Position numbers and translations under genes: made by a program. This document shows, one piece after another, positions 25,915 through 63,850 of a stretch of DNA of 64,000 nucleotides. The notes under the pieces are model-generated. The model searched no databases. It was not told the origin of the DNA and was given only the letters and a program-made list of their open reading frames with translations. The stretch is from IMG/VR virus record IMGVR_UViG_3300028763_000006, positions 1-64,000 of that record. One strand, given 5' to 3'. The stretch comes from an uncultured virus (IMG/VR IMGVR_UViG_3300028763_000006) (Duplodnaviria; Heunggongvirae; Uroviricota; Caudoviricetes). Positions within the stretch are counted from its first letter, which is position 1, and each line of letters starts with the position of its first letter.

Positions 25915-26193
25915 ATGAGATACATAAAAACATTTGAAGATAAATCAGATAAAATAGAAGTAGGAGACTATGTTATCATTAAAAATAATACAGCATGTCA
26001 TCCGAAATTTAATCATTTTTTTATAAATCCTTGTGAAGTCACATCATTAGATAATTCAGCAATTGATGGACACAACATAAAATTAAAATGTAAAACAGAT
26101 AATATATGGTGGAAGAAAACAGACATCTATTATCATTCAAAAAGAAAAGAAGATGTAGAATCAATTTTAAATACAAGAAAATTCAATTTATGA
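25915..26193 (+). CDS. KFNL-tag family small protein
   Basis: MRYIKTFE...VGDYV...NTRKFNL*. Confidence 0.75.
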   Translation: MRYIKTFEDKSDKIEVGDYVIIKNNTACHPKFNHFFINPCEVTSLDNSAIDGHNIKLKCKTDNIWWKKTDIYYHSKRKEDVESILNTRKFNL

Positions 26194-26203
26194 GAAAAAT
26201 CAT

Positions 26204-26512
26204 ATGAAAAATATTAGATTATATGAAGAATATATAATCACAAACTATGAAGTTGGTGATTACATTTTATTTAAAGATGATTATCTAAAGTTCTGGAAGA
26301 AAAATAAATCTGGAATATCTAATGATGTTTTCAAATTTGCAAAAATAACTGGATTAAACGCAAAAAATGATGATAGATATATTCTTGAAGTAATAGAAGA
26401 TAATGATATAGTTACATATTATTTAGAAGAAAAATATTTTGAAAGAAAATTAACATCAGAAGAAATAGAAGAATTTGAAATAACAAAAAAGTCATTAAAA
26501 TTTAATATATGA
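26204..26512 (+). CDS. KFNL-tag family small protein
   Basis: MKNIRLYEE...VGDYI...KFNI*. Confidence 0.75.
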   Translation: MKNIRLYEEYIITNYEVGDYILFKDDYLKFWKKNKSGISNDVFKFAKITGLNAKNDDRYILEVIEDNDIVTYYLEEKYFERKLTSEEIEEFEITKKSLKFNI

Positions 26513-27111
26513 TAAAAAATTATACACAATACATAAAAGAATCATACAATGAAATACACAGCAACTACGTAATGATAGATGATGATGAAACTGATAAGAT
26601 ATATATCGGAAAGGTAAAATTATCAAACAGAAATAATTTTGTAGATTTATCATATTTTTATTGGTTTGATAAGTCTAAATTAAAATTAGAAAAAATTAGC
26701 GGTACAATTAGATTTAATGATTACACATTAAATATTACATATCAATCTGATAGCTTAAAAAACTGTTTAATTAAAATATCTAACCTATATGACGGCATAC
26801 AAAAATTCAAGACTTATAAAAAATATATCATAGGAGAAAATGATAAATATATAGGATTATACGAAGTTGAATATTCTGAACCATGGATTAAATATATGAA
26901 TAAATATCCAAATGTAAAATTACATTTTTCATATTATCCTGAATCAGAAAGAAAGAAAATATTTGACCATACAAACTCTAAATATGAGAATTCACCAAAA
27001 TCAATAATGAGTTTCAACGTAGATATGAATACAATAAAAGAATTTGATTCATTTGATGACGCATATTCAGTGTTAGAGATAAAGCAAGACGCAAACAAAT
27101 TTAATTTGTAA
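26509..27111 (+). CDS. KFNL-tag family protein
   Basis: MIKNYTQYIKE...DANKFNL*. Confidence 0.75.
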   Translation: MIKNYTQYIKESYNEIHSNYVMIDDDETDKIYIGKVKLSNRNNFVDLSYFYWFDKSKLKLEKISGTIRFNDYTLNITYQSDSLKNCLIKISNLYDGIQKFKTYKKYIIGENDKYIGLYEVEYSEPWIKYMNKYPNVKLHFSYYPESERKKIFDHTNSKYENSPKSIMSFNVDMNTIKEFDSFDDAYSVLEIKQDANKFNL

Positions 27112-27147
27112 ATATATAATTTCGAGTAAAAAAAAAAATTAAAATAT

Positions 27148-27567
27148 ATGATATATTTAAAAAAATTTGAATCAGAAAATATAATGGAAAACGAACAATG
27201 TTTTGTTTTCCTCCAAGGAAATGATGCAAATGAAGAACATTACTATGATTTGGTTCGTGAAAGTAAAAATGACAATTTAATACTTTATCCAGAAAGATCC
27301 ATGACATTTGCTGATACTGTTGATTATAAACGTTATGTTAAATCAGTAGTTACTGAAAATCCATTTATAATATCTTGTTATCCAAGAGAGAATGTATGGA
27401 TATTACAAGATGATGATTGGACTCATCCAGATCAACAAACATATGGAGCTAGTGTAAATCTTATAACATCTTCAATTTTACAATATAGAAACACTATACC
27501 AACTTCTGTGTTAGGCGGTGGTAAATTTAAAGATAAAGTTAAAAAGTTAAAAAATTATAATGATTAA
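27148..27567 (+). CDS. Protein with the N-terminal tag only
   Basis: MIYLKKFESE...; no KFNL end. Confidence 0.65.
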   Translation: MIYLKKFESENIMENEQCFVFLQGNDANEEHYYDLVRESKNDNLILYPERSMTFADTVDYKRYVKSVVTENPFIISCYPRENVWILQDDDWTHPDQQTYGASVNLITSSILQYRNTIPTSVLGGGKFKDKVKKLKNYND

Positions 27568-27585
27568 AAAATTATTACACACATA

Positions 27586-27852
27586 ATGAAATACGTTAAA
27601 AAATACGAAAATTTAAAAAAAGTCACTCCAAATTTCAAAGAAGGAGACTATGTCATTTGCATAGATAGCGAAGACTCAATCTTAACTAAAGACATGATAT
27701 ATTTAGTGAAAAAAATATTAAAAAATGTAAATGGTTATTATGTTTGTAAAGTAAATAGTAAATTAGGAAAAATTGGTGAAAATTTAGGAACATTTTTATG
27801 TGATAGATTTATATCAGAAATTGAATATAATACAAACAAATTTAATTTATAA
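27586..27852 (+). CDS. KFNL-tag family small protein
   Basis: MKYVKKYE...EGDYV...NTNKFNL*. Confidence 0.75.
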   Translation: MKYVKKYENLKKVTPNFKEGDYVICIDSEDSILTKDMIYLVKKILKNVNGYYVCKVNSKLGKIGENLGTFLCDRFISEIEYNTNKFNL

Positions 27853-27855
27853 AAA

Positions 27856-28437
27856 ATGATAAAAAAATATTTACAATACATAACTGAATCAATAACAACC
27901 GATGTTGATGGATTATTGAACAGTATAAATGACACTAAAATAGATTTCTTTAAAATTGGATTATCAAATGATGATTATATAGAAAAAACTATAGATTTTT
28001 TATATGATGATAGTGATTTTAATCAACAATTATTTAAACAGAATCTCAAAAAAGGAGAGATGGAAACTACAATGGAAATTGAGAATTTTTTAAGAAAAGA
28101 CATTGACATGAAATTTTTCTTTCTATATAGTAGAGATGAAACAGTTTTAGATAATCCAAATTATATAATTTTACAATATTACAAAGATGATAAATGGTAC
28201 CCTATTGAAATATATTCAATAAAAGGAAAAGTGGAAGAATTCTACAAAAAACTAACAGCAAAAACTATAAAATTAACTCTTGATAATATTACATATATTT
28301 ATCAAACATCTAATTCTGGTAATAATTGGTTATTAAAAGAACCAGAAAAGAAAACTTCTAAATTCAAAGAAAATATAAATACAGATGATATAAAAACGTT
28401 AATAAAGGGCGGAGCTAAATTAAAAATTATAGACTAA
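27856..28437 (+). CDS. Protein with the N-terminal tag only
   Basis: MIKKYLQYITE... Confidence 0.65.
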   Translation: MIKKYLQYITESITTDVDGLLNSINDTKIDFFKIGLSNDDYIEKTIDFLYDDSDFNQQLFKQNLKKGEMETTMEIENFLRKDIDMKFFFLYSRDETVLDNPNYIILQYYKDDKWYPIEIYSIKGKVEEFYKKLTAKTIKLTLDNITYIYQTSNSGNNWLLKEPEKKTSKFKENINTDDIKTLIKGGAKLKIID

Positions 28438-28800
28438 ATGAAATATTTGAAAACATATGAAAACTTAAATGTTCCTAAAGAATACATTCTTTGTTTACTT
28501 GATCACAAAGATAGATGGGATAGAAATTTCTATCATGAAGGTAAAGAACCTGTATATGTAATATTCAAAGTTTTAAAGCATGAAAAAAATAATAGTAATT
28601 ATTATGATACAGATTTGAAAATAATTTATGAATATCAAGATGAAGATAATTATTGTGATCGTAGATGGGACAAAATAAGAAACGAAGAAAGATTATTTTT
28701 TGAAAGTATAAAAGATAAAATAATCTATCAATCCAACAATTCAAAAGATGTATTAAACAAACTAAATATAATTAGGCAATCAAACAAATTTAATCTATAA
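28438..28800 (+). CDS. KFNL-tag family small protein
   Basis: MKYLKTYE...QSNKFNL*. Confidence 0.75.
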   Translation: MKYLKTYENLNVPKEYILCLLDHKDRWDRNFYHEGKEPVYVIFKVLKHEKNNSNYYDTDLKIIYEYQDEDNYCDRRWDKIRNEERLFFESIKDKIIYQSNNSKDVLNKLNIIRQSNKFNL

Positions 28801-28801
28801 C

Positions 28802-29122
28802 ATGAATCATTTAAAAAAATTTGAGAACATAAATAAAGAAGATATAGATTACAATAAAATTTATTTATATAAGAATAAAGGTGGATATGTAGCAATTGGA
28901 AAAATAAAATTAATCAATAATTGCTACACATTTTATGAATATTATGATAATCATGATACCTTTGAATTTGGAAATCTAATAGTAAAAATAGATTATTCTA
29001 AATATTATGAGGATGATTATATGAGGATGAATTCAGAAGATTTTGATTATTTAAATATTGCACCACAAGATGAAATCAAAAAATACAATTTTGCATTAGA
29101 CTCTAAAAAATTCAATTTATAA
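28802..29122 (+). CDS. KFNL-tag family small protein
   Basis: MNHLKKFE...DSKKFNL*. Confidence 0.75.
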   Translation: MNHLKKFENINKEDIDYNKIYLYKNKGGYVAIGKIKLINNCYTFYEYYDNHDTFEFGNLIVKIDYSKYYEDDYMRMNSEDFDYLNIAPQDEIKKYNFALDSKKFNL

Positions 29123-29123
29123 T

Positions 29124-29396
29124 ATGAAACATTTAAAAATATTTGAGACATTTGATGAAGAATATAATATTGGCGATTGTGTAATAGTCATCAGTGAATT
29201 TAATAACATAGATGATGAGCCAATGATAATAATATCTGATAATGATTTTGGTAGTTACACATGTAAGTTTTTAAATCAAGGTAGCCATGACTATCCTGAT
29301 GTTAAAATTTATCCAGATGAGATTACAAGAAAAGCAACATCAGAAGATTTAGAAATATCTAAAATGTCTATAACAACAAGTAAATTCAATTTATGA
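29124..29396 (+). CDS. KFNL-tag family small protein
   Basis: MKHLKIFE...IGDCV...TTSKFNL*. Confidence 0.75.
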   Translation: MKHLKIFETFDEEYNIGDCVIVISEFNNIDDEPMIIISDNDFGSYTCKFLNQGSHDYPDVKIYPDEITRKATSEDLEISKMSITTSKFNL

Positions 29397-29918
29397 TTTT
29401 ATTTCAAAACATTGTCCGAAGTCAGAAAACAACAAATCAAATTTTTCATAATTTGAACCAAAGTAAATGAAGCAGCAAGCCATTGGAGCACCTTTTTTAT
29501 CTTCAACACCTTCACTCCAAAATTTCAATCTTGTATCTTTTAAAAAACACAAACCTTTTGCTTTTTTGAATATTAAATCTTTAAAATGCTTAGTGTTAGT
29601 AGCAACTGGAATCAGATACAAAATTTCACTTTTATAATTTTCATTTGCATCGACTCCTTTTTTAATCCAATCATATATTCTTGTTTTATTTTCAACATCT
29701 GAACCATAAGGAGGATTAACAAATAAAGTTTTATAGTTCCAACTTTCTTTTAATCCATCTGTTGGTAAAATATATTTAATTTTAGCATCTATCATACTAG
29801 TTTCATTACTACATGGATCTAATACTACTTCTCCTAACATTTTATTTATTAATTCTACAAATTTAGGTGGAGTGTTCCATGTTTTATTTTTAGATATACT
29901 ATTTCTTCCTGCAGTCAT
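29391..29918 (-). CDS. Phage DNA N6-adenine methyltransferase (Dam-family)
   Basis: WNTP, LDPC, DGL..SW, FVNPPY, RLKF motifs. Confidence 0.85.
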   Translation of the reverse strand: MTAGRNSISKNKTWNTPPKFVELINKMLGEVVLDPCSNETSMIDAKIKYILPTDGLKESWNYKTLFVNPPYGSDVENKTRIYDWIKKGVDANENYKSEILYLIPVATNTKHFKDLIFKKAKGLCFLKDTRLKFWSEGVEDKKGAPMACCFIYFGSNYEKFDLLFSDFGQCFEIKS

Positions 29919-29968
29919 TAAATTGATTATTATTTTTTAATATATATAGAAAAATAAGGTTTCAAAAC

Positions 29969-30658
29969 ATGATTGTCTATAAAAAAATTTTAGAATATTT
30001 AGATAATAAAGAAAAGAATGAAAACTACAAATTAATTGATTATACTAGATTATCAGATAGTTTAACTAATGATCAAATTAAAGATTTGTGTAAAGAAGCG
30101 GAAGATAATAATTTTTATGCAATTTCTGTATTACCAGAATTTGTAGCATCAGTAGAATCATTCGTTAAAAATGAAATTAAAGTATCTGCATTAATTGATT
30201 TTCCTAAAGGAAATTCAATCACAAAATATAAACTTGATCAAATTGATAAATCAATTGTCAATGGAGCTGATGAAATTGATGTTGTACTTAATTATGAATT
30301 GATAAAAAAAGATAAAACAGAAGAATTAGAAACAGAAATAAGAAAATTGACGGAATATTGTCACAAAGAAGGTTCAATCATAAAATTAACAATTGAAATT
30401 GGAGCACTTAACAATGAAGAAATTGAAAAAATTTGTAGAATGTGCATTGAAAATAATGTAGATTATATATCTACATCTACTGGAAAATTACCTAATGATG
30501 AATCATTTGAACAAAAAATTGAGAAAGTTAAATTCATGAGAAAAATATTACCTGATTATGTTAAAATAAAATTCACTGGTGGTATTAGAACAACCGAACA
30601 AATAAAAGAGATTAAATCTCTGGTAGATAGAATCGGAACAAGTATAATTCCACAATAA
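29969..30658 (+). CDS. deoC: Deoxyribose-phosphate aldolase homologue lacking the Schiff-base Lys
   Basis: IDYT-x-L, FPKG, GADEIDVV, K-x-x-IE, STSTG (canonical KTSTG), K-x-x-GGIR, RIGTS. Confidence 0.8.
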   Translation: MIVYKKILEYLDNKEKNENYKLIDYTRLSDSLTNDQIKDLCKEAEDNNFYAISVLPEFVASVESFVKNEIKVSALIDFPKGNSITKYKLDQIDKSIVNGADEIDVVLNYELIKKDKTEELETEIRKLTEYCHKEGSIIKLTIEIGALNNEEIEKICRMCIENNVDYISTSTGKLPNDESFEQKIEKVKFMRKILPDYVKIKFTGGIRTTEQIKEIKSLVDRIGTSIIPQ

Positions 30659-30670
30659 AAAATATAATTT

Positions 30671-31003
30671 ATGAAACATTTAAAATACTTTGAAAATAAA
30701 ATAAAAAAATACGAAATTGGAGATTTTGTTATAGGTAAAGTTGATTGGACAGAAACAGACGGTTATACAATTGATGAGATAAATAATTACTTGAGTAATG
30801 AAGCAGGAGAAATAGTAGACATGGAACTAAATGGAATAGATGATGATTTCATAACTCTACGTTATATGAATTTATCACTACCTATGTTTGAGTTTTGTGA
30901 AGATATAATATGTTTTGATACTAATCAAATACTAAGATATGCAACACAGAAGGAAATAGAAATATTTAAAATGAAAGAAAACACAGAAAAATTCAATTTA
31001 TAA
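30671..31003 (+). CDS. KFNL-tag family small protein
   Basis: MKHLKYFE...IGDFV...NTEKFNL*. Confidence 0.75.
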   Translation: MKHLKYFENKIKKYEIGDFVIGKVDWTETDGYTIDEINNYLSNEAGEIVDMELNGIDDDFITLRYMNLSLPMFEFCEDIICFDTNQILRYATQKEIEIFKMKENTEKFNL

Positions 31004-31035
31004 AAAAAGTGATTATCAATTGATAATCACTTTTT
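31004..31035. terminator. Bidirectional terminator/palindrome
   Basis: AAAAAGTGATTATCAATTGATAATCACTTTTT between convergent genes. Confidence 0.8.
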
Positions 31036-31037
31036 AT

Positions 31038-31832: not shown

Positions 31833-31866
31833 TTTTATAAGTATATATAATTATTTTTATATATAC

Positions 31867-31898
31867 TTTGGTATTACCAATATAAAAATGTATATTTG
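31867..31898 (+). promoter_or_regulatory. Bacteroidota-type promoter
   Basis: TTTG 31867-70, 20-nt spacer, TATATTTG 31891-98; ATG at 31927. Confidence 0.6.
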
Positions 31899-31926
31899 CA
31901 TTCTAAAAAATTACACAGACATTTTA

Positions 31927-32577
31927 ATGATAACAAATTTTAAAAATTTTAATATGAATGAATCTCTATCAAATTTTGACTTGAGCAAATTAGTAACGAT
32001 TATATCAATAAATAAAGACTCAGAAGGAAACTGGATTTATAAAACAGATGATAGAAAAGAATTTAAACTACCAAAAGAACAAGCAGGAAAATTAACATTG
32101 ATTGATGATAATTTTGCAAATTTTGTAAACTCTGGACATCCAATAACAAAATATTTCGAAATAACAGATGATAATATTATATCATATGTAGCGAATTTTG
32201 CTGTTGATGCTGTGGCTTTAAGAGAGGGTAGGGTTTATCTAATAGAAAGGCAAGACGGTAGAGGCTGGGCTTTACCAGGAGGCTTTATTGATGCTGGAGA
32301 AACACCTCAGCAAGCAGTTCTAAGAGAACTAACTGAAGAAACAAAGGCAAAGAGTGATGACATTAAAAGTATAGAGTCATTAGATATGATTAGAACTAAT
32401 GATCCAAGAGAAATAAATTTCTTCACATTTCCTTTTGTTATTCATATAAAAAATACATCAGAGCTATCATTTGATGATGATGCAAAAAGTGGAAAATGGA
32501 TGTTATTAAATAGGGCGTCAAAATCACAATTAGCATTCTCTCATCACAATGATATTCTCAAAAAAGTATCATTCTAA
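31927..32577 (+). CDS. Nudix hydrolase (start reassigned to 31927)
   Basis: WALPGGFIDAGETPQQAVLRELTEET Nudix box, DPR, LAFSH; begins MITNFKNF. The upstream part of the tracked ORF is antisense to the endolysin Thr repeat. Confidence 0.85.
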   Translation: MITNFKNFNMNESLSNFDLSKLVTIISINKDSEGNWIYKTDDRKEFKLPKEQAGKLTLIDDNFANFVNSGHPITKYFEITDDNIISYVANFAVDAVALREGRVYLIERQDGRGWALPGGFIDAGETPQQAVLRELTEETKAKSDDIKSIESLDMIRTNDPREINFFTFPFVIHIKNTSELSFDDDAKSGKWMLLNRASKSQLAFSHHNDILKKVSF

Positions 32578-32593
32578 TTGTCAAAAAGATCAT

Positions 32594-32627
32594 AAAAAAA
32601 GCTGAAATTTAAATTTCAGCTTTTTTT
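32594..32627. terminator. Bidirectional terminator
   Basis: AAAAAAAGCTGAAATTTAAATTTCAGCTTTTTTT. Confidence 0.8.
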
Positions 32628-33102
32628 ATAAATTAAATTTAGAAGTGTCTTTATATAGATTAAAATAAGTCAGATTAATATTAGAAATAATGTTATTTAC
32701 ATCATTCTGTTTAATAATACTTGAAAAACTATAATATTCACCATAATCTTCTTTTGGCGACATTATATGTCTTAAAAATGATAGAGTATATGACCATTTA
32801 TCTTCATAAACTTTTTTTACAGATTTACCCCAATGAAAATCTATTTTAATATCAACATTATTAATTATAGTAAAAAGAACATAAAAAATAACATCAAATT
32901 CTGATGTAGGAAAACTACATCTATTAATAGTTATCATATGTTCATAATCTGGAGGTGAATTTGTAGAATAAAATAAATCAGTATCAATAGTTTTTAAAAA
33001 ATCAACAATTTTATCACCTAACTTAATTACTTTATAATGAGAATCAAGATGAGCCACAAATTCTTCAGTATAAACTACATGTTCCTCAAATTTTATAATC
33101 AT
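32626..33102 (-). CDS. KFNL-tag family protein
   Basis: MIIKFEE...DTSKFNL*. Confidence 0.7.
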   Translation of the reverse strand: MIIKFEEHVVYTEEFVAHLDSHYKVIKLGDKIVDFLKTIDTDLFYSTNSPPDYEHMITINRCSFPTSEFDVIFYVLFTIINNVDIKIDFHWGKSVKKVYEDKWSYTLSFLRHIMSPKEDYGEYYSFSSIIKQNDVNNIISNINLTYFNLYKDTSKFNL

Positions 33103-33105
33103 AAA

Positions 33106-34364: not shown

Positions 34365-34402
34365 GATTATATATTTTTAATTATTAATTATTAATTTATA
34401 CA

Positions 34403-35685: not shown

Positions 35686-36124
35686 CTAATTTTCTTTTCT
35701 TAATCATTTCCTCAATATATTGATCAGTAGGCAATTTAATACTTGGATCTGACTTCTTAATAGGTTTATCAGAATTATCTTTAATACCTTCTTTATCATT
35801 TATCTCTTTAACTATTGAAGCTAAATATTGTTCTGGACTCATTTTTAAATCATCATCAGTATAAATCATACCATAAACAGTATCATCATTAAATATATAA
35901 AATTCTTTTGATGATAAAGTAAAATCTTGATAAAAAATCAACTTACCTATTGAACCATATGTCAGAACTTGTTTTCCTGTCATTTCCAAATATTTATTCA
36001 TAAATGGATCTTTAATTCTAACTGTTTCTTGTTTTAAATCAATAAAATTTTCTCCCAAATTCATTTTAAAAATTGATATCTTTCTAAATATATTTAGCAT
36101 TTGTGTATTTGATACTATTATCAT
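35672..36124 (-). CDS. Hypothetical protein
   Basis: 150-aa ORF in an operon. Confidence 0.6.
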   Translation of the reverse strand: MIIVSNTQMLNIFRKISIFKMNLGENFIDLKQETVRIKDPFMNKYLEMTGKQVLTYGSIGKLIFYQDFTLSSKEFYIFNDDTVYGMIYTDDDLKMSPEQYLASIVKEINDKEGIKDNSDKPIKKSDPSIKLPTDQYIEEMIKKRKLDGNG

Positions 36125-36672
36125 TGTGTATAAATATTATCTTTTAAGTCATTTTTATCTGTTCCTTCGTCATCTGATTTATCTTTTAATTGACCTAATT
36201 TATCAATCATAAAATCTTCTTTTATATCTTCAACATCAACCTCTTCGACCAATTCTCCTTTTTCTTCCATTTCATCGTTAAATTGATGAATTTTCAATAA
36301 TATTTTATTTATTTCCAATGCTTTACCTTCAGTTGGAGTTTCAATTGGAGCAGCACCTTGTTCTTGAGATTGAGAATTATCAGTTCCTTTCATTTGATCT
36401 AGTCTAACCATAAATATAACTCTATATCTAAAAAATGAATCTTCATCTTCATCTTTATCTTCAGTTTCTTCTATAGGTTCAGAAAAATTAAAAATTAAAA
36501 ATTTTTCCATTGGATTAGAATTAGAAATATCTATTTGACCATCCAATGAGCAGCCTTGAGCAGCCAATGAACCTTCACTAAACCATTTTTCGATTTGAGA
36601 TTTTAATTCCTTAAAAAATACTGTTATTTTATAATCAGCAGATTCTACATATTCTTCAAAAAGTTTCTTCAT
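36121..36672 (-). CDS. Acidic protein with N-terminal tag-like start
   Basis: MKKLFEEYVE... Confidence 0.6.
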   Translation of the reverse strand: MKKLFEEYVESADYKITVFFKELKSQIEKWFSEGSLAAQGCSLDGQIDISNSNPMEKFLIFNFSEPIEETEDKDEDEDSFFRYRVIFMVRLDQMKGTDNSQSQEQGAAPIETPTEGKALEINKILLKIHQFNDEMEEKGELVEEVDVEDIKEDFMIDKLGQLKDKSDDEGTDKNDLKDNIYTQ

Positions 36673-36748
36673 TTATAATAATTATTTTAAAGTATATATA
36701 AAAATAACTTCATAGAAAATCACATAAAAAAATTAATATATAAGAAAC

Positions 36749-37105
36749 ATGAAGTATATTAAAAAATTCGAAGGTTCTAATGAAAAAGGTAAATTTTGGA
36801 AAATAAATACAGATGAGCCATATTTTGAAATATCATTACATAAACTTGGATTTGATGACTCAATAAAGGAGACAATTTACAGTATGAATAACTACCACAT
36901 AAAAAATAGCGGGTTAGTTTATATTTATATAATTGACACAAACACATCATGGATGGGAATATCTGTAACATGGAGTCAAGTTTCAGATTTCAGAAAAGAT
37001 ACTGCAATAGAAAACGGTAATGAGTATATGGGAGAAGTCGATATAACAGAAGAAGATATTAAAAAATGGAAACTAATTAAAACAGCCGAAAAATTTAATT
37101 TATGA
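36749..37105 (+). CDS. KFNL-tag family small protein
   Basis: MKYIKKFE...TAEKFNL*. Confidence 0.75.
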   Translation: MKYIKKFEGSNEKGKFWKINTDEPYFEISLHKLGFDDSIKETIYSMNNYHIKNSGLVYIYIIDTNTSWMGISVTWSQVSDFRKDTAIENGNEYMGEVDITEEDIKKWKLIKTAEKFNL

Positions 37106-37743
37106 AATATCTAAAAGCATTTGAATCAGAAGTATCATCAGGTAATGCATCAGGAAAGGCTGGGGTTGGATCAATTCCATTTGGAAGAGGTTATATGCAA
37201 TCAGGTGGAAACAATGGAGCCAGTGGCATAGTATTCACTGCGGTTGGAGAACCATCTTATACTACATACAAAAGTATGAAGCATTCGAAAAAAGAATTGA
37301 AAGAGAAAAGAAGAAGATTGAAAATGTATAAAAAATTCAAAAAAGATTCTATAATATCAGAGAGAATTGTTGAGATTGATCAAAGTTCATGGAATTGGGG
37401 ATCAGAAACAAATGATGAAAATATAGGCAAATATGTTATAATGAATGAATTTGAAAAAGATGCATTTGCATCTACTAGAGAAAATAAAAAAGAATTAAAT
37501 GATTTTGTTAAAAATAATAGTGGTAAAATAGTAGCATCAAAAAAATCAGGAGTTGGTGTTACTTATATGATAAAGTATAATAATATACCTGAGTATTTAA
37601 AAAAATATTTTGTTAGTTTTAACTTTACAAATGACGCAGAACATAAATATATGAGAGCAATAAAAAGACATAACACAATTGAATTCATAGGATCAAAAGA
37701 AGAATGTGAAATTAAAATATCAACAAAAAAATATAATTTATAA
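37102..37743 (+). CDS. KFNL-tag family protein with Gly-rich and basic segments
   Basis: MKYLKAFE...STKKYNL*. Confidence 0.75.
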   Translation: MKYLKAFESEVSSGNASGKAGVGSIPFGRGYMQSGGNNGASGIVFTAVGEPSYTTYKSMKHSKKELKEKRRRLKMYKKFKKDSIISERIVEIDQSSWNWGSETNDENIGKYVIMNEFEKDAFASTRENKKELNDFVKNNSGKIVASKKSGVGVTYMIKYNNIPEYLKKYFVSFNFTNDAEHKYMRAIKRHNTIEFIGSKEECEIKISTKKYNL

Positions 37744-38186
37744 TGATAATACATTTCAAGGAATTTATAACAGAAGGATTTTTAAATATATTCAATAAAA
37801 AAAAAGAATCTATTGAAAATGATAATGAGAAAATTCTCAGAATGATTTATGATAAAGAGCCAGAACTACAAAAGTATAAATTTGAAGTAGATTCTTGGAA
37901 TAGAAGAGGAGATTTATTACCAAGAGAAAAAAGAAATGATGAAATAATAACCAACCTAAATGGAATTGATGTTATTTTTGATACAGTAACAAAAATTTAC
38001 GAAATTTCTATTGCGCCTAGATACGATTTTGATTTTTCTCTTAGAATACTCAATTTAATTGATGAAAATTATGACACACTTTCTCATAATTTATACAAAT
38101 CTAGTATATCAACAAAATCAATATTATTCACAGAAATGAGTGAAGAAAGAAAATTTGAATTAGACACAAAAAAATATAATCTATAA
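37743..38186 (+). CDS. KFNL-tag family protein
   Basis: MIIHFKEFITE...DTKKYNL*. Confidence 0.75.
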   Translation: MIIHFKEFITEGFLNIFNKKKESIENDNEKILRMIYDKEPELQKYKFEVDSWNRRGDLLPREKRNDEIITNLNGIDVIFDTVTKIYEISIAPRYDFDFSLRILNLIDENYDTLSHNLYKSSISTKSILFTEMSEERKFELDTKKYNL

Positions 38187-38187
38187 G

Positions 38188-38580
38188 ATGAAAAAATTTG
38201 ATGAATTTATAAAAGAAGATGCATTTGCAACTATGGGAAACACAGGAGGAATGGGTGCTATTGTAGCTGCTCAACCAGGAAGTATTCCAGGATCTCAAGG
38301 AACTACTGGTTCTGGTGATATTAGTCAGCCTCTTGCTACATATTCTAAACCCGTAGTAAATTTAAAAAGACATAAAAAATCTAAGAAAAATAAAATGAGA
38401 AAAGTAGAATCATTTGATATTTTCATGAAAGAAGAAAATGAGATAATAGACAATTTCACTGCAAGATATTATGATAATTATGATGATGAAGAAGAACCAA
38501 GTTATGAAGTAAATATTCAAGATATTGAAGAAAATAATATTAAAAAAATTCAAATGTACGAAAAAGATGAAAATAAATAA
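38188..38580 (+). CDS. N-tagged Gly-rich/basic/acidic protein
   Basis: MKKFDEFIKE...GNTGGMG...KRHKKSKKNK. Confidence 0.65.
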   Translation: MKKFDEFIKEDAFATMGNTGGMGAIVAAQPGSIPGSQGTTGSGDISQPLATYSKPVVNLKRHKKSKKNKMRKVESFDIFMKEENEIIDNFTARYYDNYDDEEEPSYEVNIQDIEENNIKKIQMYEKDENK

Positions 38581-42255: not shown

Positions 42256-42567
42256 CTAATTGAATATTTTTTTCAATTTCTTTTTTCTTAGCATTTTTAT
42301 TCCACCAATAATCTCTACATTATCAAACTTAAATTCTTCACGTTCATTTTTTTTAGAAACATACAAAGTACTATACATTACTAACAAAAAGTATTGTTCT
42401 TTGAAAAGTGGATGGTCTTTTTTTATTTTATTTTTCAATTGAAATGTTTTCAATTGAAATAAATATGTAATAAAAGCATCACTTTTTGAAGATAACTCAA
42501 TAGGATTTTTATTTTTTATATGAAAATCAATATCCTTAATGAAATCATATAATTGATAATTTGACAT
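42256..42567 (-). CDS. Small protein, RKxKL family
   Basis: Ends LRKKKLKKIFN. Confidence 0.55.
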   Translation of the reverse strand: MSNYQLYDFIKDIDFHIKNKNPIELSSKSDAFITYLFQLKTFQLKNKIKKDHPLFKEQYFLLVMYSTLYVSKKNEREEFKFDNVEIIGGIKMLRKKKLKKIFN

Positions 42568-49172: not shown

Positions 49173-49451
49173 TTGTATATATTAAAAATAAATAAGGTAA
49201 TTATGAAAGTCATAAAAAAAGGTAGCATTGTAACTCAGGATAAAAATTTTTTTTATTATTGGACATGTCCAAAATTTAAATTAGAAGTAATTAAAATTGA
49301 TGGACGAATAGCTTATTTTAAATATGACATTATAATGAAAAATTCAAATAATATAATGCAATCAACTAAAAGCATAAACATTGATTATATAAAAATAGAC
49401 ATATCAGAAACAAGAAAACAAAAATTATTAAAAATAAATGAGCGAATTTGA
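49173..49451 (+). CDS. Small protein, RKxKL family (start probably MKVIKK)
   Basis: Ends TRKQKLLKINERI. Confidence 0.55.
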   Translation: MYILKINKVIMKVIKKGSIVTQDKNFFYYWTCPKFKLEVIKIDGRIAYFKYDIIMKNSNNIMQSTKSINIDYIKIDISETRKQKLLKINERI

Positions 49452-49770
49452 TGAAATAAATTCCTTAAAAGAAGGAACAGAAAAAATAGATAAACTAATA
49501 AATTTCTATAAAGTAACGGTAAAAATTAATGAATGGTTAAATGGGACAAATAAAAATTCTATTATACACTTCAAAGATAGAATTGAATATAAAAGAAATA
49601 ATCAATATCATAGACTAAATGGACCTGCTATTGATTATGAGAATGAAGACAAAAATAAATATTACTATAAGGGAATATTATACAATTCAAAAGATGAATG
49701 GTCGAAGATTACACAAAAAGAAGTAAGAAAAACAAAACTAAAAAGAATAAAAAAAGAAAGTTCAGAATAA
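49438..49770 (+). CDS. HRxxGPA-motif protein, RKxKL family
   Basis: YHRLNGPAI...YYYKG; ends VRKTKLKRIKKESSE. Confidence 0.65.
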   Translation: MSEFDEINSLKEGTEKIDKLINFYKVTVKINEWLNGTNKNSIIHFKDRIEYKRNNQYHRLNGPAIDYENEDKNKYYYKGILYNSKDEWSKITQKEVRKTKLKRIKKESSE

Positions 49771-51230: not shown

Positions 51231-52133
51231 CTAATCAAATTTTTTCTTCAATTTTATATCTATATTACTCAAATATCCAGTTTTTATATGAACGTCATTT
51301 TCATCATCATCAATAATATCATCAGTATCATATTCAAAATCAAAAATAAATAAGTCATAATCTTCTCTTTCTTTTGGTAATTTATCAAAATCATTATTCT
51401 TACTCAAATACATATCATCATAATTCCAACCAACTACCAATTTATCTAATTCTTTATTTTTAATATTTAGTGGTTGATTATCTTCTATCATACCAGAATA
51501 TTTAGATGATTTATCTTTTTTGTATCCTCTCCAATATAAACAATAACCATGATTTATTTTTTTAATCGGATAATTAATAATACTATTAATCCATTCATCA
51601 TCCTTTATAATTTTAAATCCATCTTGAACATATATTTCTCCAAATAGTTCTTTTATTTTAGGTATGAATTTTTTAAGAAATTCAGGAATTGTCAATCTAA
51701 CTCCATTATAATATCCACCATCACTATCAAACCATCCAGAGTCTTTCAATCTTTCTATTTTTGATTTAATTATTATAAATTTTTTAGTATACTTACTAAT
51801 ATTTTTTATTTTTTGAGTTTTTATCAATTCTTCATTTTCGTGAAACCATATTCGTTTTCTTGATCCATAACTTCCTACTTCAATTGAAGGGAATGCAAAA
51901 GGAGAAATCTTATAATTATCACTTATTTTATCTCCATCTAATTCTAACTTAAATAAGGTAACAGGAGAATCACCAACATAATGATTCATACTTTTATTTC
52001 TTGTAGTTGAAATATTTGTAAATTTATAAGATGATATTGAATTTGTATTTAATATATATTCACACTTACTCAAATCAAATATATGATATAAACTACCCAA
52101 TTGCTTACCTTCATAACATTTTAAATACTTCAT
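51231..52133 (-). CDS. N-tagged protein, possible ADP-ribosyltransferase fold
   Basis: MKYLKCYE start; LYH...ISTTR...ENEE (H/R-S-ExE-like triad). Confidence 0.45.
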   Translation of the reverse strand: MKYLKCYEGKQLGSLYHIFDLSKCEYILNTNSISSYKFTNISTTRNKSMNHYVGDSPVTLFKLELDGDKISDNYKISPFAFPSIEVGSYGSRKRIWFHENEELIKTQKIKNISKYTKKFIIIKSKIERLKDSGWFDSDGGYYNGVRLTIPEFLKKFIPKIKELFGEIYVQDGFKIIKDDEWINSIINYPIKKINHGYCLYWRGYKKDKSSKYSGMIEDNQPLNIKNKELDKLVVGWNYDDMYLSKNNDFDKLPKEREDYDLFIFDFEYDTDDIIDDDENDVHIKTGYLSNIDIKLKKKFD

Positions 52134-52155: not shown

Positions 52156-52581
52156 TTAAATATTGAATTTGCCTGCTATTGAATATAACTCAATATCAGA
52201 TTCTTTCAAATTACGAATAATTTCAATCGCATCATTATAATATTTAACATCAAATGTAACAGAAAAATAATCCCAATAATTATCAATATGAGATTTATAT
52301 GGCTCAATTATAATATTATTTTCTATCAATTTATTTATAATTAAATCTGAAATAAATTCTATTTTAGGATCAAAATCATATGCAGTGAAACCTATACAAA
52401 TTTTATTTTTATTTTTATTAATACTTATATAATTTTGATTTTTTTTATAATCATTACCTTCAAATTTAATTTCATTTTTTGATATGAAACAAGAAAAGTT
52501 ATTATTTAATTTAAGACGCAAAGTATTTAATAATTCTGCTGAAAAAAATTTACTTTCGAATATTTTAAAATTTTTAATCAT
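52156..52581 (-). CDS. KFNL-tag family protein (start reassigned)
   Basis: MIKNFKIFE...IAGKFNI*. Confidence 0.7.
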   Translation of the reverse strand: MIKNFKIFESKFFSAELLNTLRLKLNNNFSCFISKNEIKFEGNDYKKNQNYISINKNKNKICIGFTAYDFDPKIEFISDLIINKLIENNIIIEPYKSHIDNYWDYFSVTFDVKYYNDAIEIIRNLKESDIELYSIAGKFNI

Positions 52582-52591: not shown

Positions 52592-52945
52592 TTATTCGTA
52601 AATTGATTGTCCATGTTTATCATTATGTAAATCATGAATAGCAACAAAGTAATCACCACTAATATACAATGAATCCAATTTTATATACATATTAAAAATT
52701 ACAGGAGTTTTAGATCCTGTCATCAAACTATATCTTCTGGCAATATCTATATCAGGAGAAAACCAAGTTCCATTTTTAAATTTACCTGTTCTTATTATTT
52801 TTTTTGAATTCTCTCTATTTGTACCATGATACAATAAAATATATACATCACCGTCGATATACATTTTTTCAATTCCTCTATCAGTAACATTTTTTAAGTA
52901 TTCATCTGACAAATGATTCTCATATATTTTAAATTCTATTATCAT
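52592..52945 (-). CDS. N-tagged protein, possible ART/PARP-like fold
   Basis: MIIEFKIYE start; LYHGT...II..G..GTWFSPD...ARRY. Confidence 0.45.
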   Translation of the reverse strand: MIIEFKIYENHLSDEYLKNVTDRGIEKMYIDGDVYILLYHGTNRENSKKIIRTGKFKNGTWFSPDIDIARRYSLMTGSKTPVIFNMYIKLDSLYISGDYFVAIHDLHNDKHGQSIYE

Positions 52946-53015
52946 AATATGTTATATATTATTTTTTACATATAAGAAATTGTTTTTTTATATATATAAG
53001 AAAAAACCAATTTCT

Positions 53016-57269: not shown

Positions 57270-57281
57270 ATATATAACAAC

Positions 57282-57891: not shown

Positions 57892-58237
57892 TTTTTGAAT
57901 CTGATATGCATGTTTTTCCTACAATATTCAATTCTCCTTTTTTTATCATATCTAATAGAGTAGGAATTGTATATGTAATAACATCACTAATTAATATAAA
58001 TGTATCATATTTACCGTATTTATCACCATGTATAAATTCATCTAAATCCATTTTTGAGATTTCTTCTGTGCCATCTTTGAAAATTGTATTAACTACAACT
58101 AATTGATTTTTTTTTAATTTATCATAACATTCATGAGTAGAAATATTTACACCATCTGTTAAATTGTTTGTATCTGGATTAAGAACAAATAAAAATAAAT
58201 TACCATCTATTCTTAATACCACGCCATCATACTTCAT
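57869..58237 (-). CDS. Hypothetical protein
   Basis: 122-aa ORF. Confidence 0.5.
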   Translation of the reverse strand: MKYDGVVLRIDGNLFLFVLNPDTNNLTDGVNISTHECYDKLKKNQLVVVNTIFKDGTEEISKMDLDEFIHGDKYGKYDTFILISDVITYTIPTLLDMIKKGELNIVGKTCISDSKNDDKNDE

Positions 58238-58478
58238 ATATCTTTATTAATTTTAAATATCTACTTAACTTTTTATTATTTTCTACTAATCTGTTTATAT
58301 CTATTATAACATCATTTATTGATAAAAAATCAATATTATTTAAATTATATGCAAAAAATTCTATTACATCAATTCTTTTTTCAAAAAATTTATTTTTTGG
58401 ACTTCCACATTTTTTAGCATAAACTAAGTGAAAACCATCAAAACTATCTATCTTATCATCAATTATTCCTTTTAACAT
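58227..58478 (-). CDS. Small protein with RKxKL-like C-terminus
   Basis: Ends SRYLKLIKIYEV. Confidence 0.5.
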   Translation of the reverse strand: MLKGIIDDKIDSFDGFHLVYAKKCGSPKNKFFEKRIDVIEFFAYNLNNIDFLSINDVIIDINRLVENNKKLSRYLKLIKIYEV

Positions 58479-58530
58479 CTATTTTAAGAACTTGTTTTTA
58501 TTTATATATAAAAAAAAATCAAAACAGTTT

Positions 58531-59244: not shown

Positions 59245-59397
59245 TTAATATATAATCATTGTATATTTCAAGCATTTAAGTGGGGGAAATATATAATATA
59301 TATAGTATATATATCATGATCTTGCATCTTTTTTATAAATGATTGATTATTAATAATATACAAACTAAGAAAATTATACAAAATTTAAAATTTAAAT

Positions 59398-60300: not shown

Positions 60301-60303
60301 AAT

Positions 60304-60651
60304 ATGAAGCACTTAAGATTATTTGAGAATGAGTTATCGTATAAATATAAAGTAGGTGATTATGTATTAATTAACTATGATACTAAATCTAAAACATTAT
60401 CAAAGTTGAAGGATTTTGTAAATATTCATATAGGAAAAATACTGTTTATTGACGATAAAAGTTTAATTATTCAATATAATAATCCACCAGATAAATTGAA
60501 TCATTTTTTTTCTGATAAAGTAGTAGGCAATAAAAATATTAAAAATTCTGTGTTTTTTTGGAATAAAATAAATACAATAAGAAGATTGGCAACAGAAGAT
60601 GAAATATCAGAATATGAAGTAGTTAAAAATACAAATAAATTTAATATATGA
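60304..60651 (+). CDS. KFNL-tag family small protein
   Basis: MKHLRLFE...YKVGDYV...NTNKFNI*. Confidence 0.75.
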   Translation: MKHLRLFENELSYKYKVGDYVLINYDTKSKTLSKLKDFVNIHIGKILFIDDKSLIIQYNNPPDKLNHFFSDKVVGNKNIKNSVFFWNKINTIRRLATEDEISEYEVVKNTNKFNI

Positions 60652-60989
60652 AACATTTGAAATTATATGAATCTAATCTCATACCTAAATATAAAGTAGG
60701 TGATTATGTTCATTTAGGTATGGAGCCAGATTTTACTTATGATGATTGCTTAGGACAAATACTTAAAATAGATAAAAACGGATTCATAAAAGAACCTGAA
60801 GAAACAGATTCAGATAAAAATCATGATTATTATATTAATACATTAAATCCTTACCCATATAAAGTTAAAATATTAGATGGTAAATTCGATGCAGAAGAAG
60901 GTTTAATAGATAGATATCTGAATAAAGATGAAATAGAATATTTTGAGTATTTATTAAAGAATAATGATACTAAAAAATTTAATATATGA
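60648..60989 (+). CDS. KFNL-tag family small protein
   Basis: MKHLKLYE...YKVGDYV...DTKKFNI*. Confidence 0.75.
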   Translation: MKHLKLYESNLIPKYKVGDYVHLGMEPDFTYDDCLGQILKIDKNGFIKEPEETDSDKNHDYYINTLNPYPYKVKILDGKFDAEEGLIDRYLNKDEIEYFEYLLKNNDTKKFNI

Positions 60990-61246
60990 GTAAATTAATT
61001 AATGATATACATAAAATGTTGGGGTATATTAAAATCATACAACAATATAATTTTTTTTCACAATTAGGAAACGAAGAAGAAATTGATTATTTAAGAGATA
61101 AAGTAGATAACCTTTATTATATCGATGATACAGATAAACTCATAAAAGATTTTGAATGGTGTGCTGATATGGTTAATCAGCTTTACAATGAAGTTGATCC
61201 TGAATTCAAAAAGAAATTATTAAAAGAAGAACAAGAGCAAGATTAA
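60986..61246 (+). CDS. Hypothetical protein
   Basis: 86-aa ORF. Confidence 0.55.
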   Translation: MSKLINDIHKMLGYIKIIQQYNFFSQLGNEEEIDYLRDKVDNLYYIDDTDKLIKDFEWCADMVNQLYNEVDPEFKKKLLKEEQEQD

Positions 61247-61247
61247 C

Positions 61248-61278
61248 AAAAAAACTCAGATTAAATCTGAGTTTTTTT
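61248..61278. terminator. Bidirectional terminator
   Basis: AAAAAAACTCAGA-TTAAA-TCTGAGTTTTTTT. Confidence 0.8.
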
Positions 61279-61751
61279 TATCTACCATATCTATCACCAG
61301 GATATTTCTTATCAATTTCTTTCCACATTTCAAATGAACGTTTAAATAACTCAAATTTATTTTCAATGAAATCAGTTACCCCGTCATCTGTTGTACTATC
61401 TATATTAAAATGTTCAATAACATTTGATGGTAAATTCTCAAGATTGTTTTTTATTCCTAAAAAATAATATTTACTTTTTTCAGTTAAATAATAATTTATA
61501 GATTCAATTAATTTTTTAATATAATCTGATTCACCATAATCCGATAATGTATCACCCATTAGACTTATTTTTCTTTCATCATTTTTCTCTCTTTCCACTG
61601 TATATGCATCACTTGTTATTCCTTTTTGACTAGGATTTTTATCAAAGTCTTCATCTGAAATTGGTTTTTTATGTTCGCCATCAATTTTTCCACCATATGG
61701 AAATTTTATATATTCTTTTATATATTCTCCATAGTCTACTATTTTTTTCAT
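61278..61751 (-). CDS. Protein with N-terminal tag-like start
   Basis: MKKIVDYGEYIKE... Confidence 0.6.
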   Translation of the reverse strand: MKKIVDYGEYIKEYIKFPYGGKIDGEHKKPISDEDFDKNPSQKGITSDAYTVEREKNDERKISLMGDTLSDYGESDYIKKLIESINYYLTEKSKYYFLGIKNNLENLPSNVIEHFNIDSTTDDGVTDFIENKFELFKRSFEMWKEIDKKYPGDRYGR

Positions 61752-61769
61752 GCCTTTTATATTTTTTTT

Positions 61770-62114
61770 TTATATATTAAATTTATTAGTTGATATTAAT
61801 AAATCCAAATCATCTCTTGTTATTATTGACCAATTATCCTTATTATTCCAATCATAATCTGGATATTTGTCTAATATATAATCTAATCTACGCTCTGCTT
61901 GTTTTGTTGTAAAAAAACAAGCTGTGTTATTAATATTATAAATTGTATTTGAATTAAATTTATTAATATCAATAGAAGATATTACATCACTAGATTCATA
62001 TGGAAGATTCATCAATATCAATTTATCACCTTTAGTTGGTCTATTCAAAATTAATAAATATTTTTGTTTATTTTCTTCTTTCTTTTTAAATATGTTAAAT
62101 TTTTCTACTATCAT
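61770..62114 (-). CDS. KFNL-tag family protein (paralogue of 62117..62455)
   Basis: MIVEKFNIFK...STNKFNI*. Confidence 0.75.
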   Translation of the reverse strand: MIVEKFNIFKKKEENKQKYLLILNRPTKGDKLILMNLPYESSDVISSIDINKFNSNTIYNINNTACFFTTKQAERRLDYILDKYPDYDWNNKDNWSIITRDDLDLLISTNKFNI

Positions 62115-62116
62115 AA

Positions 62117-62455
62117 TTATAAATTAAATTTATTTGTAGTGAATAAAAAATTCAACTCGTCAAAAGTTTTTATCATCCAATTATTTCTATTAGTCCATTG
62201 AGAATCACTATATTTATGTAGTATATTATCTAATCTATCATTGGCTAATTCAATTGTAGGAAAACTTTCAATATTATTATTTTTCCCTTTTAGAATATTT
62301 ATATTACTTGAATTTATTTCATCAGTAGTAATAAAATCCTCAATTCCGTGAGTAAGTTTATATAATATAGAATAATCTCCTTCATTTGGTCTGTGTAAAA
62401 TCAAGAAATATTTTTCTTCTTTGTTTTTAAATATATTAAATCTTTCTATTATCAC
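62117..62455 (-). CDS. KFNL-tag family protein
   Basis: MIIERFNIFK...TTNKFNL*. Confidence 0.75.
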   Translation of the reverse strand: MIIERFNIFKNKEEKYFLILHRPNEGDYSILYKLTHGIEDFITTDEINSSNINILKGKNNNIESFPTIELANDRLDNILHKYSDSQWTNRNNWMIKTFDELNFLFTTNKFNL

Positions 62456-62470
62456 ATTCTAATATTATTT

Positions 62471-62902
62471 TTATAAATTAAATTTCATAGTAGATTTTAT
62501 CCATGTTGGAGTATAATTTACCGCATTTAGAAATAAATAGAATGAAAAAATGAAATATGAACTCTTCCAATCCATTGATGTTTTATTCGTATATTCTTCT
62601 ATTTCATAATATAATTTAGGAGTATTTTCTATTTTTGTTATTATAGAATTTAATGTATATTTTTTTATTTCTCTTTGAGTTTTTTTATCTTTCTTTTTAT
62701 CCTCTGTTTTCCAGACATCAGGATGTTTATACATAAATATTAGCATAGAAAATTCATCATAACAAGAAATTGGTATATTTCTATATGTGTAATTATCAGT
62801 TATTTTTTCACCATATTTATTCTTATATATTTTTTCATAATTATTTATAAAAATTTCAGTATCAGAGCTAATTTTTATGACTATATTATTTTTTTCTATC
62901 AT
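62471..62902 (-). CDS. KFNL-tag family protein (no clear N-tag)
   Basis: Ends STMKFNL*. Confidence 0.7.
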   Translation of the reverse strand: MIEKNNIVIKISSDTEIFINNYEKIYKNKYGEKITDNYTYRNIPISCYDEFSMLIFMYKHPDVWKTEDKKKDKKTQREIKKYTLNSIITKIENTPKLYYEIEEYTNKTSMDWKSSYFIFSFYLFLNAVNYTPTWIKSTMKFNL

Positions 62903-62993
62903 ATTAAATTTGTTTATAAGTACAATTTACAAAATTATAAAAAATACTCACAAAATATTAATAAATTGCATATTATTATATTTTTTTATATTA

Positions 62994-63431
62994 TTACAAG
63001 TTAAATTTGTTCGCATTTCTTATTAAATTCAATTCTTCAATAATAATTTTTTGTTTTTCTGTTATATTTCCATAAATAGTAAATGGTGAATTGACATTAA
63101 TTCTATATTCAATATTAGGATAATTTTTTAATATTAATGATAATATCACAAATTCTTTTTCTTTGTGTTGTAGTGTTCCTTTATATCCAACAGTACATTC
63201 ATGAACTTTATCAATAATACCTGTACATCCTTCTACAATTGGTATGAATTCAAATAAACTATTATCATAACCATAATTAAAATTAAATTTAACTACTTTA
63301 CCAGGAGCTAACAAATCTGTAATAAATTTTTTTATTTTATTCTGGTTTCCATTATAATAAATCATCAAATCATTTAAAATTAATGTTGTTTCATTTTCTA
63401 CATTCTCAAATACTTTAAAATTTGTTATCAT
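62994..63431 (-). CDS. KFNL-tag family protein
   Basis: MITNFKVFE...NANKFNL*. Confidence 0.75.
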   Translation of the reverse strand: MITNFKVFENVENETTLILNDLMIYYNGNQNKIKKFITDLLAPGKVVKFNFNYGYDNSLFEFIPIVEGCTGIIDKVHECTVGYKGTLQHKEKEFVILSLILKNYPNIEYRINVNSPFTIYGNITEKQKIIIEELNLIRNANKFNL

Positions 63432-63850
63432 ATATTAAATTTTTTTGCTTCTCTTTTTATATTTATATCATTAACAATTTTTTTAATTTCATCAGGAACA
63501 TAGCCATAAATAGTAGTTGGAGAATTTGTGTCTACATCATGATCATATTTTATTCTTTTTAATATTATTGTTAAATATATATAATGAAATTCATTACTAA
63601 ATCCATATGATCTACCTCGTATTACACCTTTGTGATGTTTATTTGAATGCATAAAATTGGTTACTCCATTAATCATCATGGTACATTTTTTACAATCAAA
63701 TTCAACTATATTGTTATCATTATAATCAAGTAATTTAAATATGAAATTTCTTATTGAGTCATCATCACCATCGAAATAATCTATTACGTCATTTAAAATT
63801 ATTGTAATCTTATCTTCTGAGTTCTCAAATATTTTGAATTCTGTTATCAT
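63428..63850 (-). CDS. KFNL-tag family protein (start reassigned; paralogue of 62994..63431)
   Basis: MITEFKIFE...EAKKFNI*. Confidence 0.75.
   Translation of the reverse strand: MITEFKIFENSEDKITIILNDVIDYFDGDDDSIRNFIFKLLDYNDNNIVEFDCKKCTMMINGVTNFMHSNKHHKGVIRGRSYGFSNEFHYIYLTIILKRIKYDHDVDTNSPTTIYGYVPDEIKKIVNDINIKREAKKFNI

Follow-up and report, generated by a model that had tools for sequence, protein, structure and literature searches.

An N-terminal leader resembling the T4 capsid targeting sequence on many proteins of a Mahaphage-like megaphage

In phage T4 an N-terminal peptide of ten residues, the capsid targeting sequence, carries a lysine at position 2 and stands on otherwise unrelated internal proteins (IPs) (PMC9026906, PMC3012670, PMC12373910). 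This signal is established: targeting of IPIII depends on residues 4 and 7 and processing on residues 8 and 10, and the protease gp21 cleaves after L/I-x-E (PMC9026906). Similar leaders are already known on other T-even proteins, and the T4 IPs inhibit type IV restriction enzymes (PMC12373910). A more distant likeness is offered by the head ejection proteins of SPN3US and phiKZ, which comprise many internal proteins with N-terminal propeptides that are cut after Glu and for which a targeting role has been proposed (PMC5694885). Here we analyze a short leader shared by many predicted proteins in the first 64 kb (24.5% guanine plus cytosine, GC; hereafter the window) of the 119-kb virus record IMGVR_UViG_3300028763_000006 (the contig, 180 open reading frames, ORFs). 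Unlike this leader, the SPN3US and phiKZ propeptides are mostly longer than 100 residues, end in A-x-E or S-x-E, and belong to another phage group (PMC5694885).

The entire contig is contained in a 235-kb record, G001, whose estimated completeness is 33%. Its DnaB is closest to that of the 735-kb phage LR756501 (57% identity), followed by phages of 634–642 kb and the Lak phages. These phages are assigned to the Mahaphage clade, with predicted Bacteroidetes hosts (Al-Shayeb et al., PMC7162821), and the window phage is a Mahaphage-like megaphage. A close relative, G003, is 93% identical at gene 27856 (genes are named by their coordinates). The sequencing runs that contain this DNA are labelled as a peat metagenome, with no RNA run among those listed, and no tRNA genes were found in the window. 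Our literature search, which left most subscription journals outside its range, returned no description of this leader in megaphages. We give a probability of about 0.7 to the reading that the leader is a prohead-loading tag that works like the T4 capsid targeting sequence, and the proteins that carry it are probably packed into the virus particle.

A shared leader and its likeness to the T4 signal

We counted the leader with a strict pattern (M-x1-3-[LIFVY]-[KR]-x-[FY]-E or M-x1-6-[FY]-x-x-[FY]-[IL]-x-E). It is present on 21 of the 86 window ORFs, whereas 5000 shuffles of the first 24 residues of each ORF, a null that preserves N-terminal composition, gave 0.28 matches on average and never more than 3. 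A looser pattern matches 25 of the 86 (shuffle mean 4.1, maximum 12) and none of 54 overlapping shadow ORFs. We regard three loose matches (20539, 42573, and 46998) as chance, and two further leaders lie at internal starts, 52581 (−) and 31927 (+). These counts uphold an earlier note on this DNA, which had reported a common leader on more than 20 ORFs; the nine peptides that it quoted as examples are all present. Over the whole contig the loose pattern is found on 36 of 180 ORFs (chance expectation about 6–8), while leaders occur on 64 of 391 ORFs in G001 and leader matches on 133 of 1019 in LR756501. Because the loose pattern has a background of 3–4%, about 35–45 of these 133 are chance matches.

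When their ends are trimmed, the 36 contig leader proteins fall into 34 body clusters. Thus, the leader set is not one paralogue family, and a short N-terminal peptide stands on otherwise unrelated bodies. Comparison of orthologue pairs gave 33 with the leader on both members, 19 discordant, and 86 with it on neither, and shared leaders differ in sequence. The leader codons differ synonymously between genes, and the amino acid substitutions are conservative (F/Y, L/I, K/R). Membrane helices were predicted for none of the 36 contig leader genes and, in LR756501, for 7 of 133 leader genes versus 117 of 886 others. Two leader genes elsewhere on the contig (81300–81809 and 81952–82212) are related in that the longer one carries the domain of the shorter in two tandem copies.

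The leader has a short form (M-K-[YH]-[LI]-K-x-[FY]-E) and a long form (M-(I)-K-x-[YF]-x-x-[FY]-I-x-E). Short forms outnumber long forms in the window phage, and the L/I-x-E site that characterizes long forms is present in 7 of the 36 contig matches. In 3 of 11 aligned sequences of gene 27856 orthologues a short form runs straight into a long form, so we take the short form to be the front half of the signal. The likeness to T4 that the earlier note had proposed holds against the IP leaders in the T4 record (MKTYQEFIAE in IPII and IPIII, MKTFKEF in IPI), which share the register M1-K2-x-hydrophobic4-x-x-F7 with the window leaders; position 4 is aromatic in T4, whereas it is aliphatic in most short forms of the window phage. 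The F/Y anchor is present in all 31 anchored leaders by definition, and 19 of the 31 also have L, F, I, Y, or V three residues before it and Lys two residues before that. A profile trained on the window ranks the IPs 2nd, 4th, and 5th among 67 T4 proteins, with modest scores. A residue from the set N/S/A/G/T directly follows the Glu in 21 of 28 short-form leaders and in 27 of 41 LR756501 long-form leaders (background about 0.25). Read against the T4 rule, the long form has the sequence features of both the targeting part (positions 4 and 7) and the processing part, and the short form retains the hydrophobic 4/7 pair.

Several features set the megaphages apart from T4. The leader is found on about 16–25% of their genes versus three in T4, and most leaders of the window phage are short forms without I/L-x-E. 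The protease of the megaphage clade is fused to a scaffold that itself matches the long form 13–14 times, and a second, lineage-specific tag is coupled to the leader.

Head genes and a cultured proxy

Among genes that head a unit on the contig, ATATATA lies at most 50 nucleotides (nt) upstream of 13 of 13 leader genes (2 of which are chance pattern matches) versus 22 of 75 others. The corresponding counts in LR756501 are 51 of 59 and 134 of 402. Counted over all genes in units headed by the motif, the figures are 31 of 36 leader genes versus 41 of 144 others on the contig, and 106 of 133 versus 331 of 886 in LR756501, where the portal, protease, and capsid genes have ATATATA upstream as well. 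The sequence TA-nn-TTTG, which we take to be a host-type promoter element, was rarer before the contig leader genes, although not significantly (0/13 vs 9/75), and the same holds for TATCTTTG before the leader genes of LR756501 (0/59 vs 17/402). A late-type motif 5′ of the leader genes is unlike T4, in which no TATAAATA late promoter lies within 110 nt of the ip genes; because of this, early expression would count less against packaging than the earlier note had held.

The gp21-like prohead protease that the earlier note expected was found, together with scaffold and gp23-like capsid genes, in G003 and LR756501, a further likeness of the Mahaphage clade to T4. In G003, which also has genes for a portal and a late sigma factor, the gp21-like protease is fused to the scaffold in a protein of 781 amino acids (aa), and this scaffold contains 13 matches to the long form, ten of them at a 14-residue period. 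The long-form pattern occurs in LR756501 at 53 N-termini (3.9 expected) and at 54 internal positions genome-wide, 14 of which fall in its protease–scaffold protein; in five further loci this protein has 13–14 matches each. Judged by its sequence, the long form (Y/F-x-x-Y/F-I-x-E) is the repeat unit of the clade's protease–scaffold and ends like the capsid propeptide. We infer that the leader binds the prohead core, probably because its long form is the scaffold's own repeat unit, and that it is cut there. This match would offer a testable answer to the old question of what the capsid targeting sequence binds.

Gene 38188 joins the leader to a copied piece of the capsid protein. Its long-form leader stands where the capsid protein has its predicted propeptide, and it is followed by a copy of capsid residues 46–96 (45% identity over 51 columns, pairwise E value 2e-9), with Glu10 aligning within one residue of the capsid M-N-E43. 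A gene resembling 38188 is present in LR756501. LR756501 also encodes two small proteins made from pieces of head genes (L016:19760 and L004:11314), one with three scaffold repeats and the other with a prohead-protease-like domain, both ending in DPYGEExW, as well as several capsid and portal fragments. Between the portal, protease, and capsid genes of four loci (L075, L078, L081, and L083) lie ORFs of 500–660 aa with similar N-termini at differing positions, which are probably homing endonucleases.

We found no cultured phage that combines the exact window leader with virion proteomics, and the available portion of the MA9V-2 paper reports no mass spectrometry. As a proxy we used Atu_ph07, a cultured 490-kb T4-related Agrobacterium phage in which many virion proteins without assigned functions are encoded at scattered sites and for which a virion list from mass spectrometry is published (PMC6102473, Table S5); the portion of this paper that we used makes no mention of a leader. 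We mapped 136 of the 140 table rows by mass and position, correcting 3 by hand and omitting gp63, 133, 325, and 482, which cross locus borders; our set of 829 ORFs compared to 714 annotated genes slightly lowers the base rate. The short leader of Atu_ph07 (M-[KRQL]-[WYFL]-x-x-[LI]-x-E) differs in sequence from that of the window phage. The published virion list includes 18 of the 19 ORFs with this leader versus 15% of the rest, or 8 of 9 when independent families are counted. When a profile built from the first 50 kb of Atu_ph07 was used to rank the 763 other ORFs, 9 of the 20 best-scoring ones were virion proteins (p 0.001). These results support the general view that proteins of the particle are marked in giant T4-related phages by short leaders ending in Glu; the window sequence and an internal location lie outside the reach of the proxy. 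Atu_ph07 also has long arrays of small same-strand ORFs with shared C-termini (L027:244-26334; F-x-x-R, Y-x-E-I-A-P-x-C), whose products, except gp443, are absent from the virion list.

Closer in leader sequence is the cultured Chryseobacterium phage MA9V-1, in which at least three annotated genes (MA9V1_146, 150, and 207) carry the long form and F-I-N-E sites occur in both the capsid propeptide and the scaffold; a further match at 174368 was dropped since it is not an annotated start. The claim is therefore testable now. In the 50 kb examined of each of the cultured relatives PTm1 and MaF61 the leader is at about chance level (1/63 and 1/47), so its expansion is not general to T4-like phages of Bacteroidota.

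As a loading tag, the leader would act as follows. The ATATATA motif is common to leader and head genes, and from it the leader genes may be transcribed late. The leader would fold into a short helix in which a Lys is followed by hydrophobic residues at a spacing of three, and this helix, whose long form has the pattern of the scaffold repeat, would bind the protease–scaffold core. The shell would close round the core, and the gp21-like protease would cleave leaders of the long form after I/L-x-E, the cut also predicted for the propeptide of the capsid protein; short-form leaders (K-x-F/Y-E) may be loaded but poorly cut, cut at F/Y-E, or left uncut. Dozens of protein species from this fragment, and roughly a hundred from a full genome, would thus reside in the head at low copy number. 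That some of them are released into the cell with the DNA is suggested by analogy, and we put this at a little below even odds.

A number of observations weigh against this reading. The window phage is known here from DNA sequence alone, and in G001 (33% complete) no protease, scaffold, or capsid genes were found. ATATATA is frequent in DNA of 24% GC (reverse-complement control 26/88), and two clear leader genes, 60304 and 60648, lie outside units headed by it. Scaffold mimicry is not general, since T4 gp22 has no long-form match and the Atu_ph07 scaffold only 2 matches to the Atu_ph07 leader. The Atu_ph07 pattern was chosen post hoc, after the virion list, and 11 of the 18 proteins belong to one family; the window pattern itself predicts Atu_ph07 virion proteins at chance level (7/36, p 0.64). 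Most short forms have no I/L-x-E cut site and only 9 of 23 have [ILMV]-[FY]-E, which makes the cleavage at the leader Glu proposed by the earlier note doubtful for the short form. A lack of such processing would nonetheless argue less strongly against packaging than that note supposed, because IPIII is packaged even when its leader cannot be cleaved (PMC9026906). Only 15 of 30 leaders have another hydrophobic residue two positions past the Glu, and the preference for N/S/A/G/T is weak in LR756501 short forms (9/21). Finally, the cargo is neither basic nor unusually variable. T4 internal proteins are basic, whereas the contig's leader proteins lean slightly to the acidic side, with a median net charge per residue of −0.028 over the 36 leader genes and −0.002 over the 144 others. 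Since the basic-cargo feature fails and both loading and cleavage are judged from sequence, membership in the T4 class is unproven. A homologue in the gene set of G001, a reference that is 33% complete, was found for 16 of 37 genes with leader and KFNL versus 95 of 185 other genes of related loci (p 0.47); by this one test, leader cargo is not more variable than its neighbors. Overall the earlier note's reading is partly supported: of the large and variable packaged set that it proposed, packaging of many protein species is probable and unusual variability is not seen.

Cargo, terminal tags and competing readings

Scans of the leader proteins against Pfam, PHROGs, and NCBIfam mostly returned no family; in LR756501, 93 of 109 leader proteins of at least 100 aa have no Pfam match, and several of the 16 that do are probably chance leader matches. 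The recognizable bodies are DeoC (29969), a Nudix protein (31927), and, elsewhere on the contig, the 5′-nucleotidase NT5C. Gene 52592 matches ART-PolyVal below the cut-off (E value 2.6e-5), which makes an ADP-ribosyltransferase-like fold a lead only; it has no sequence match to solved structures, and its 4 homologues are from close relatives. Leader genes of G001 include a MoxR-like ATPase pair and a CCA-enzyme-like protein. The same scans recognized no known anti-defence family among the window leader genes, and an anti-defence role of the cargo would be carried over from the T4 IPs by analogy.

T4 gp67 and gp68, accessory proteins of the core, provide the model for a different reading, in which the leader is only a prohead-protease or core-binding site on accessory core proteins that are later degraded or expelled. 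The acidity of the cargo fits such proteins, as do the identity of the long form with the repeat of a scaffold that is expected to be chopped, the leader genes that flank head genes in relatives, and the leaders on the MoxR-like ATPase pair and its partner. A single N-terminal site, however, would remove only about ten residues, intact enzyme domains begin right after the leader (from residue 20 in DeoC and 13 in NT5C), and the leader proteins of Atu_ph07 persist in virions. We consider this reading improbable.

Other terminal tags accompany the leader. In the window 15 ORFs have both the leader and a C-terminal KFN[LI], 10 the leader only (including the three chance matches), 5 KFN[LI] only, and 56 neither (p 1e-6); on the contig the p value for co-occurrence is 8e-10. 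The two tags are separable, as the earlier note had it from seven genes (27148, 27856, 36121, 38188, 51231, 52592, and 61278) that indeed have no KFN[LI] end, yet they are strongly associated. LR756501, with its 133 leader matches, has a single KFN end; the motif DPYGEExW is present there on 87 of 1019 ORFs, 30 of them leader genes, so the leader is conserved across the clade and the second tag is lineage-specific. DPYGEExW may directly follow the leader, lie within the protein, or stand at its C-terminus, in up to four copies per protein, and is also seen on leaderless proteins and apparent membrane proteins. A third tag, C-terminal R-x-x-K-[LI], marks 30 of the 180 genes of the contig. It almost excludes the leader, with a single gene carrying both, and only 3 of the 30 genes lie in ATATATA-headed units. 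A GD-type motif occurs in seven leader genes and also opens five leaderless genes that end in R-K-x-K-L; we take the GD-type body of the window leader genes to be SH3-like.

These tags, which have no T4 counterpart, and the absence of a cut site from most short forms would suit a leader that is one of several terminal address tags, docks to some other partner in the late cytoplasm, such as a chaperone, a protease adaptor, or an assembly-site anchor, and has nothing to do with encapsidation. We hold this to be as improbable as the accessory-core reading, as it leaves unexplained the match to the T4 IP leaders, the scaffold repeat, the end of the capsid propeptide, and the Atu_ph07 proxy. It is very improbable that the leader and KFNL have no peptide function and merely arise from a system of DNA cassettes, whose conserved stop–start junctions would provide translational coupling and recombination arms. 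Many genes do adjoin with a KFN[LI] stop codon next to the following ATG, ATGA overlaps included, the bodies found in one array differ between relatives, and one body type occurs with either tag set, but the codons vary synonymously with conservative substitutions, the leader is also on stand-alone genes, LR756501 keeps it with one KFN end, and the enrichment survives a shuffle that keeps N-terminal composition.

If the leader is a loading tag, it would tell from sequence alone which of the hundreds of unannotated megaphage genes have products that ride in the particle, giving a function class to 10–25% of megaphage genes and a short list for counter-defence screens, and its proteins could act before any phage gene is expressed. 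A bolder extension, which we think unlikely as a whole, is that Mahaphage-like megaphages use a two-ended peptide code: the scaffold-mimicking leader would load around a hundred species per head, a second, lineage-specific tag would direct them after ejection, a third would mark early proteins, and bodies would be swapped between these routes, giving an injected arsenal much larger than any described.

Features of the window

Table 1. Leader genes and associated elements. Coordinates are window positions unless the contig is named.
Coordinates	Strand	Feature
25900..25906	+	ATATATA, putative late-promoter motif ahead of the first leader array
25915..26193	+	92 aa, short-form MRYIKTFE, GD-type body, KFNL end
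26204..26512	+	102 aa, short-form MKNIRLYE, GD-type body, KFNI end
26509..27111	+	200 aa, long-form MIKNYTQYIKE, KFNL end
27148..27567	+	139 aa, short-form MIYLKKFE, no KFNL, ATATATA at 27112
27586..27852	+	88 aa, short-form MKYVKKYE, GD-type body, KFNL end
27856..28437	+	193 aa, conserved, long-form MIKKYLQYITE, no KFNL; fused short and long leader in orthologues
28438..28800	+	120 aa, short-form MKYLKTYE, KFNL end
28802..29122	+	106 aa, short-form MNHLKKFE, KFNL end
29124..29396	+	90 aa, short-form MKHLKIFE, GD-type body, KFNL end
29969..30658	+	DeoC aldolase, 19-aa leader-like extension (fails pattern; orthologues pass), ATATATA at 29940
30671..31003	+	110 aa, short-form MKHLKYFE, GD-type body, KFNL end
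31927..32577	+	Nudix family (match below curated cut-offs), leader MITNFKNF if the probable start at 31927 is used
32626..33102	-	158 aa, possible degenerate leader MIIKFEE (fails pattern), KFNL end
36121..36672	-	183 aa, leader MKKLFEEYVE (fits just the loose pattern), KFNL absent, ATATATA near 36693
36749..37105	+	118 aa, short-form MKYIKKFE, KFNL end, ATATATA at 36736
37102..37743	+	213 aa, short-form MKYLKAFE, KYNL end
37743..38186	+	147 aa, long-form MIIHFKEFITE, KYNL end
38188..38580	+	130 aa, long-form MKKFDEFIKE, then copy of the major capsid protein segment next after the predicted propeptide
51231..52133	-	300 aa, short-form MKYLKCYE, no KFNL
52156..52581	-	about 141 aa, probable start 52581, leader MIKNFKIFE, KFNI end
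52592..52945	-	117 aa, leader MIIEFKIYE, tentative lead to an ADP-ribosyltransferase-like fold, ATATATA near 52953
60304..60651	+	115 aa, short-form MKHLRLFE, GD-type body, KFNI end, outside ATATATA-headed units
60648..60989	+	113 aa, short-form MKHLKLYE, GD-type body, KFNI end, outside ATATATA-headed units
61278..61751	-	157 aa, long-form MKKIVDYGEYIKE, KFNL absent
61770..62455	-	pair of similar ORFs, 61770-62114 and 62117-62455 (GTG start), possible degenerate leaders (fail pattern), KFN[LI] ends
62994..63431	-	145 aa, leader MITNFKVFE, KFNL end, paralogue of the 63428 gene
63428..63850	-	140 aa, leader MITEFKIFE, KFNI end, ATATATA near 63856
20026-23041, 42256-42567, 49203-49770, 58227-58478; contig 92046-116395		R-x-x-K-[LI] tag genes

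In G001 the two MoxR-like AAA ATPases and their partner are encoded by three adjoining leader genes (L069:10733-15255), and the window encodes at 2868-4139 an ATPase that is similar to this leader-bearing pair and itself has no leader.

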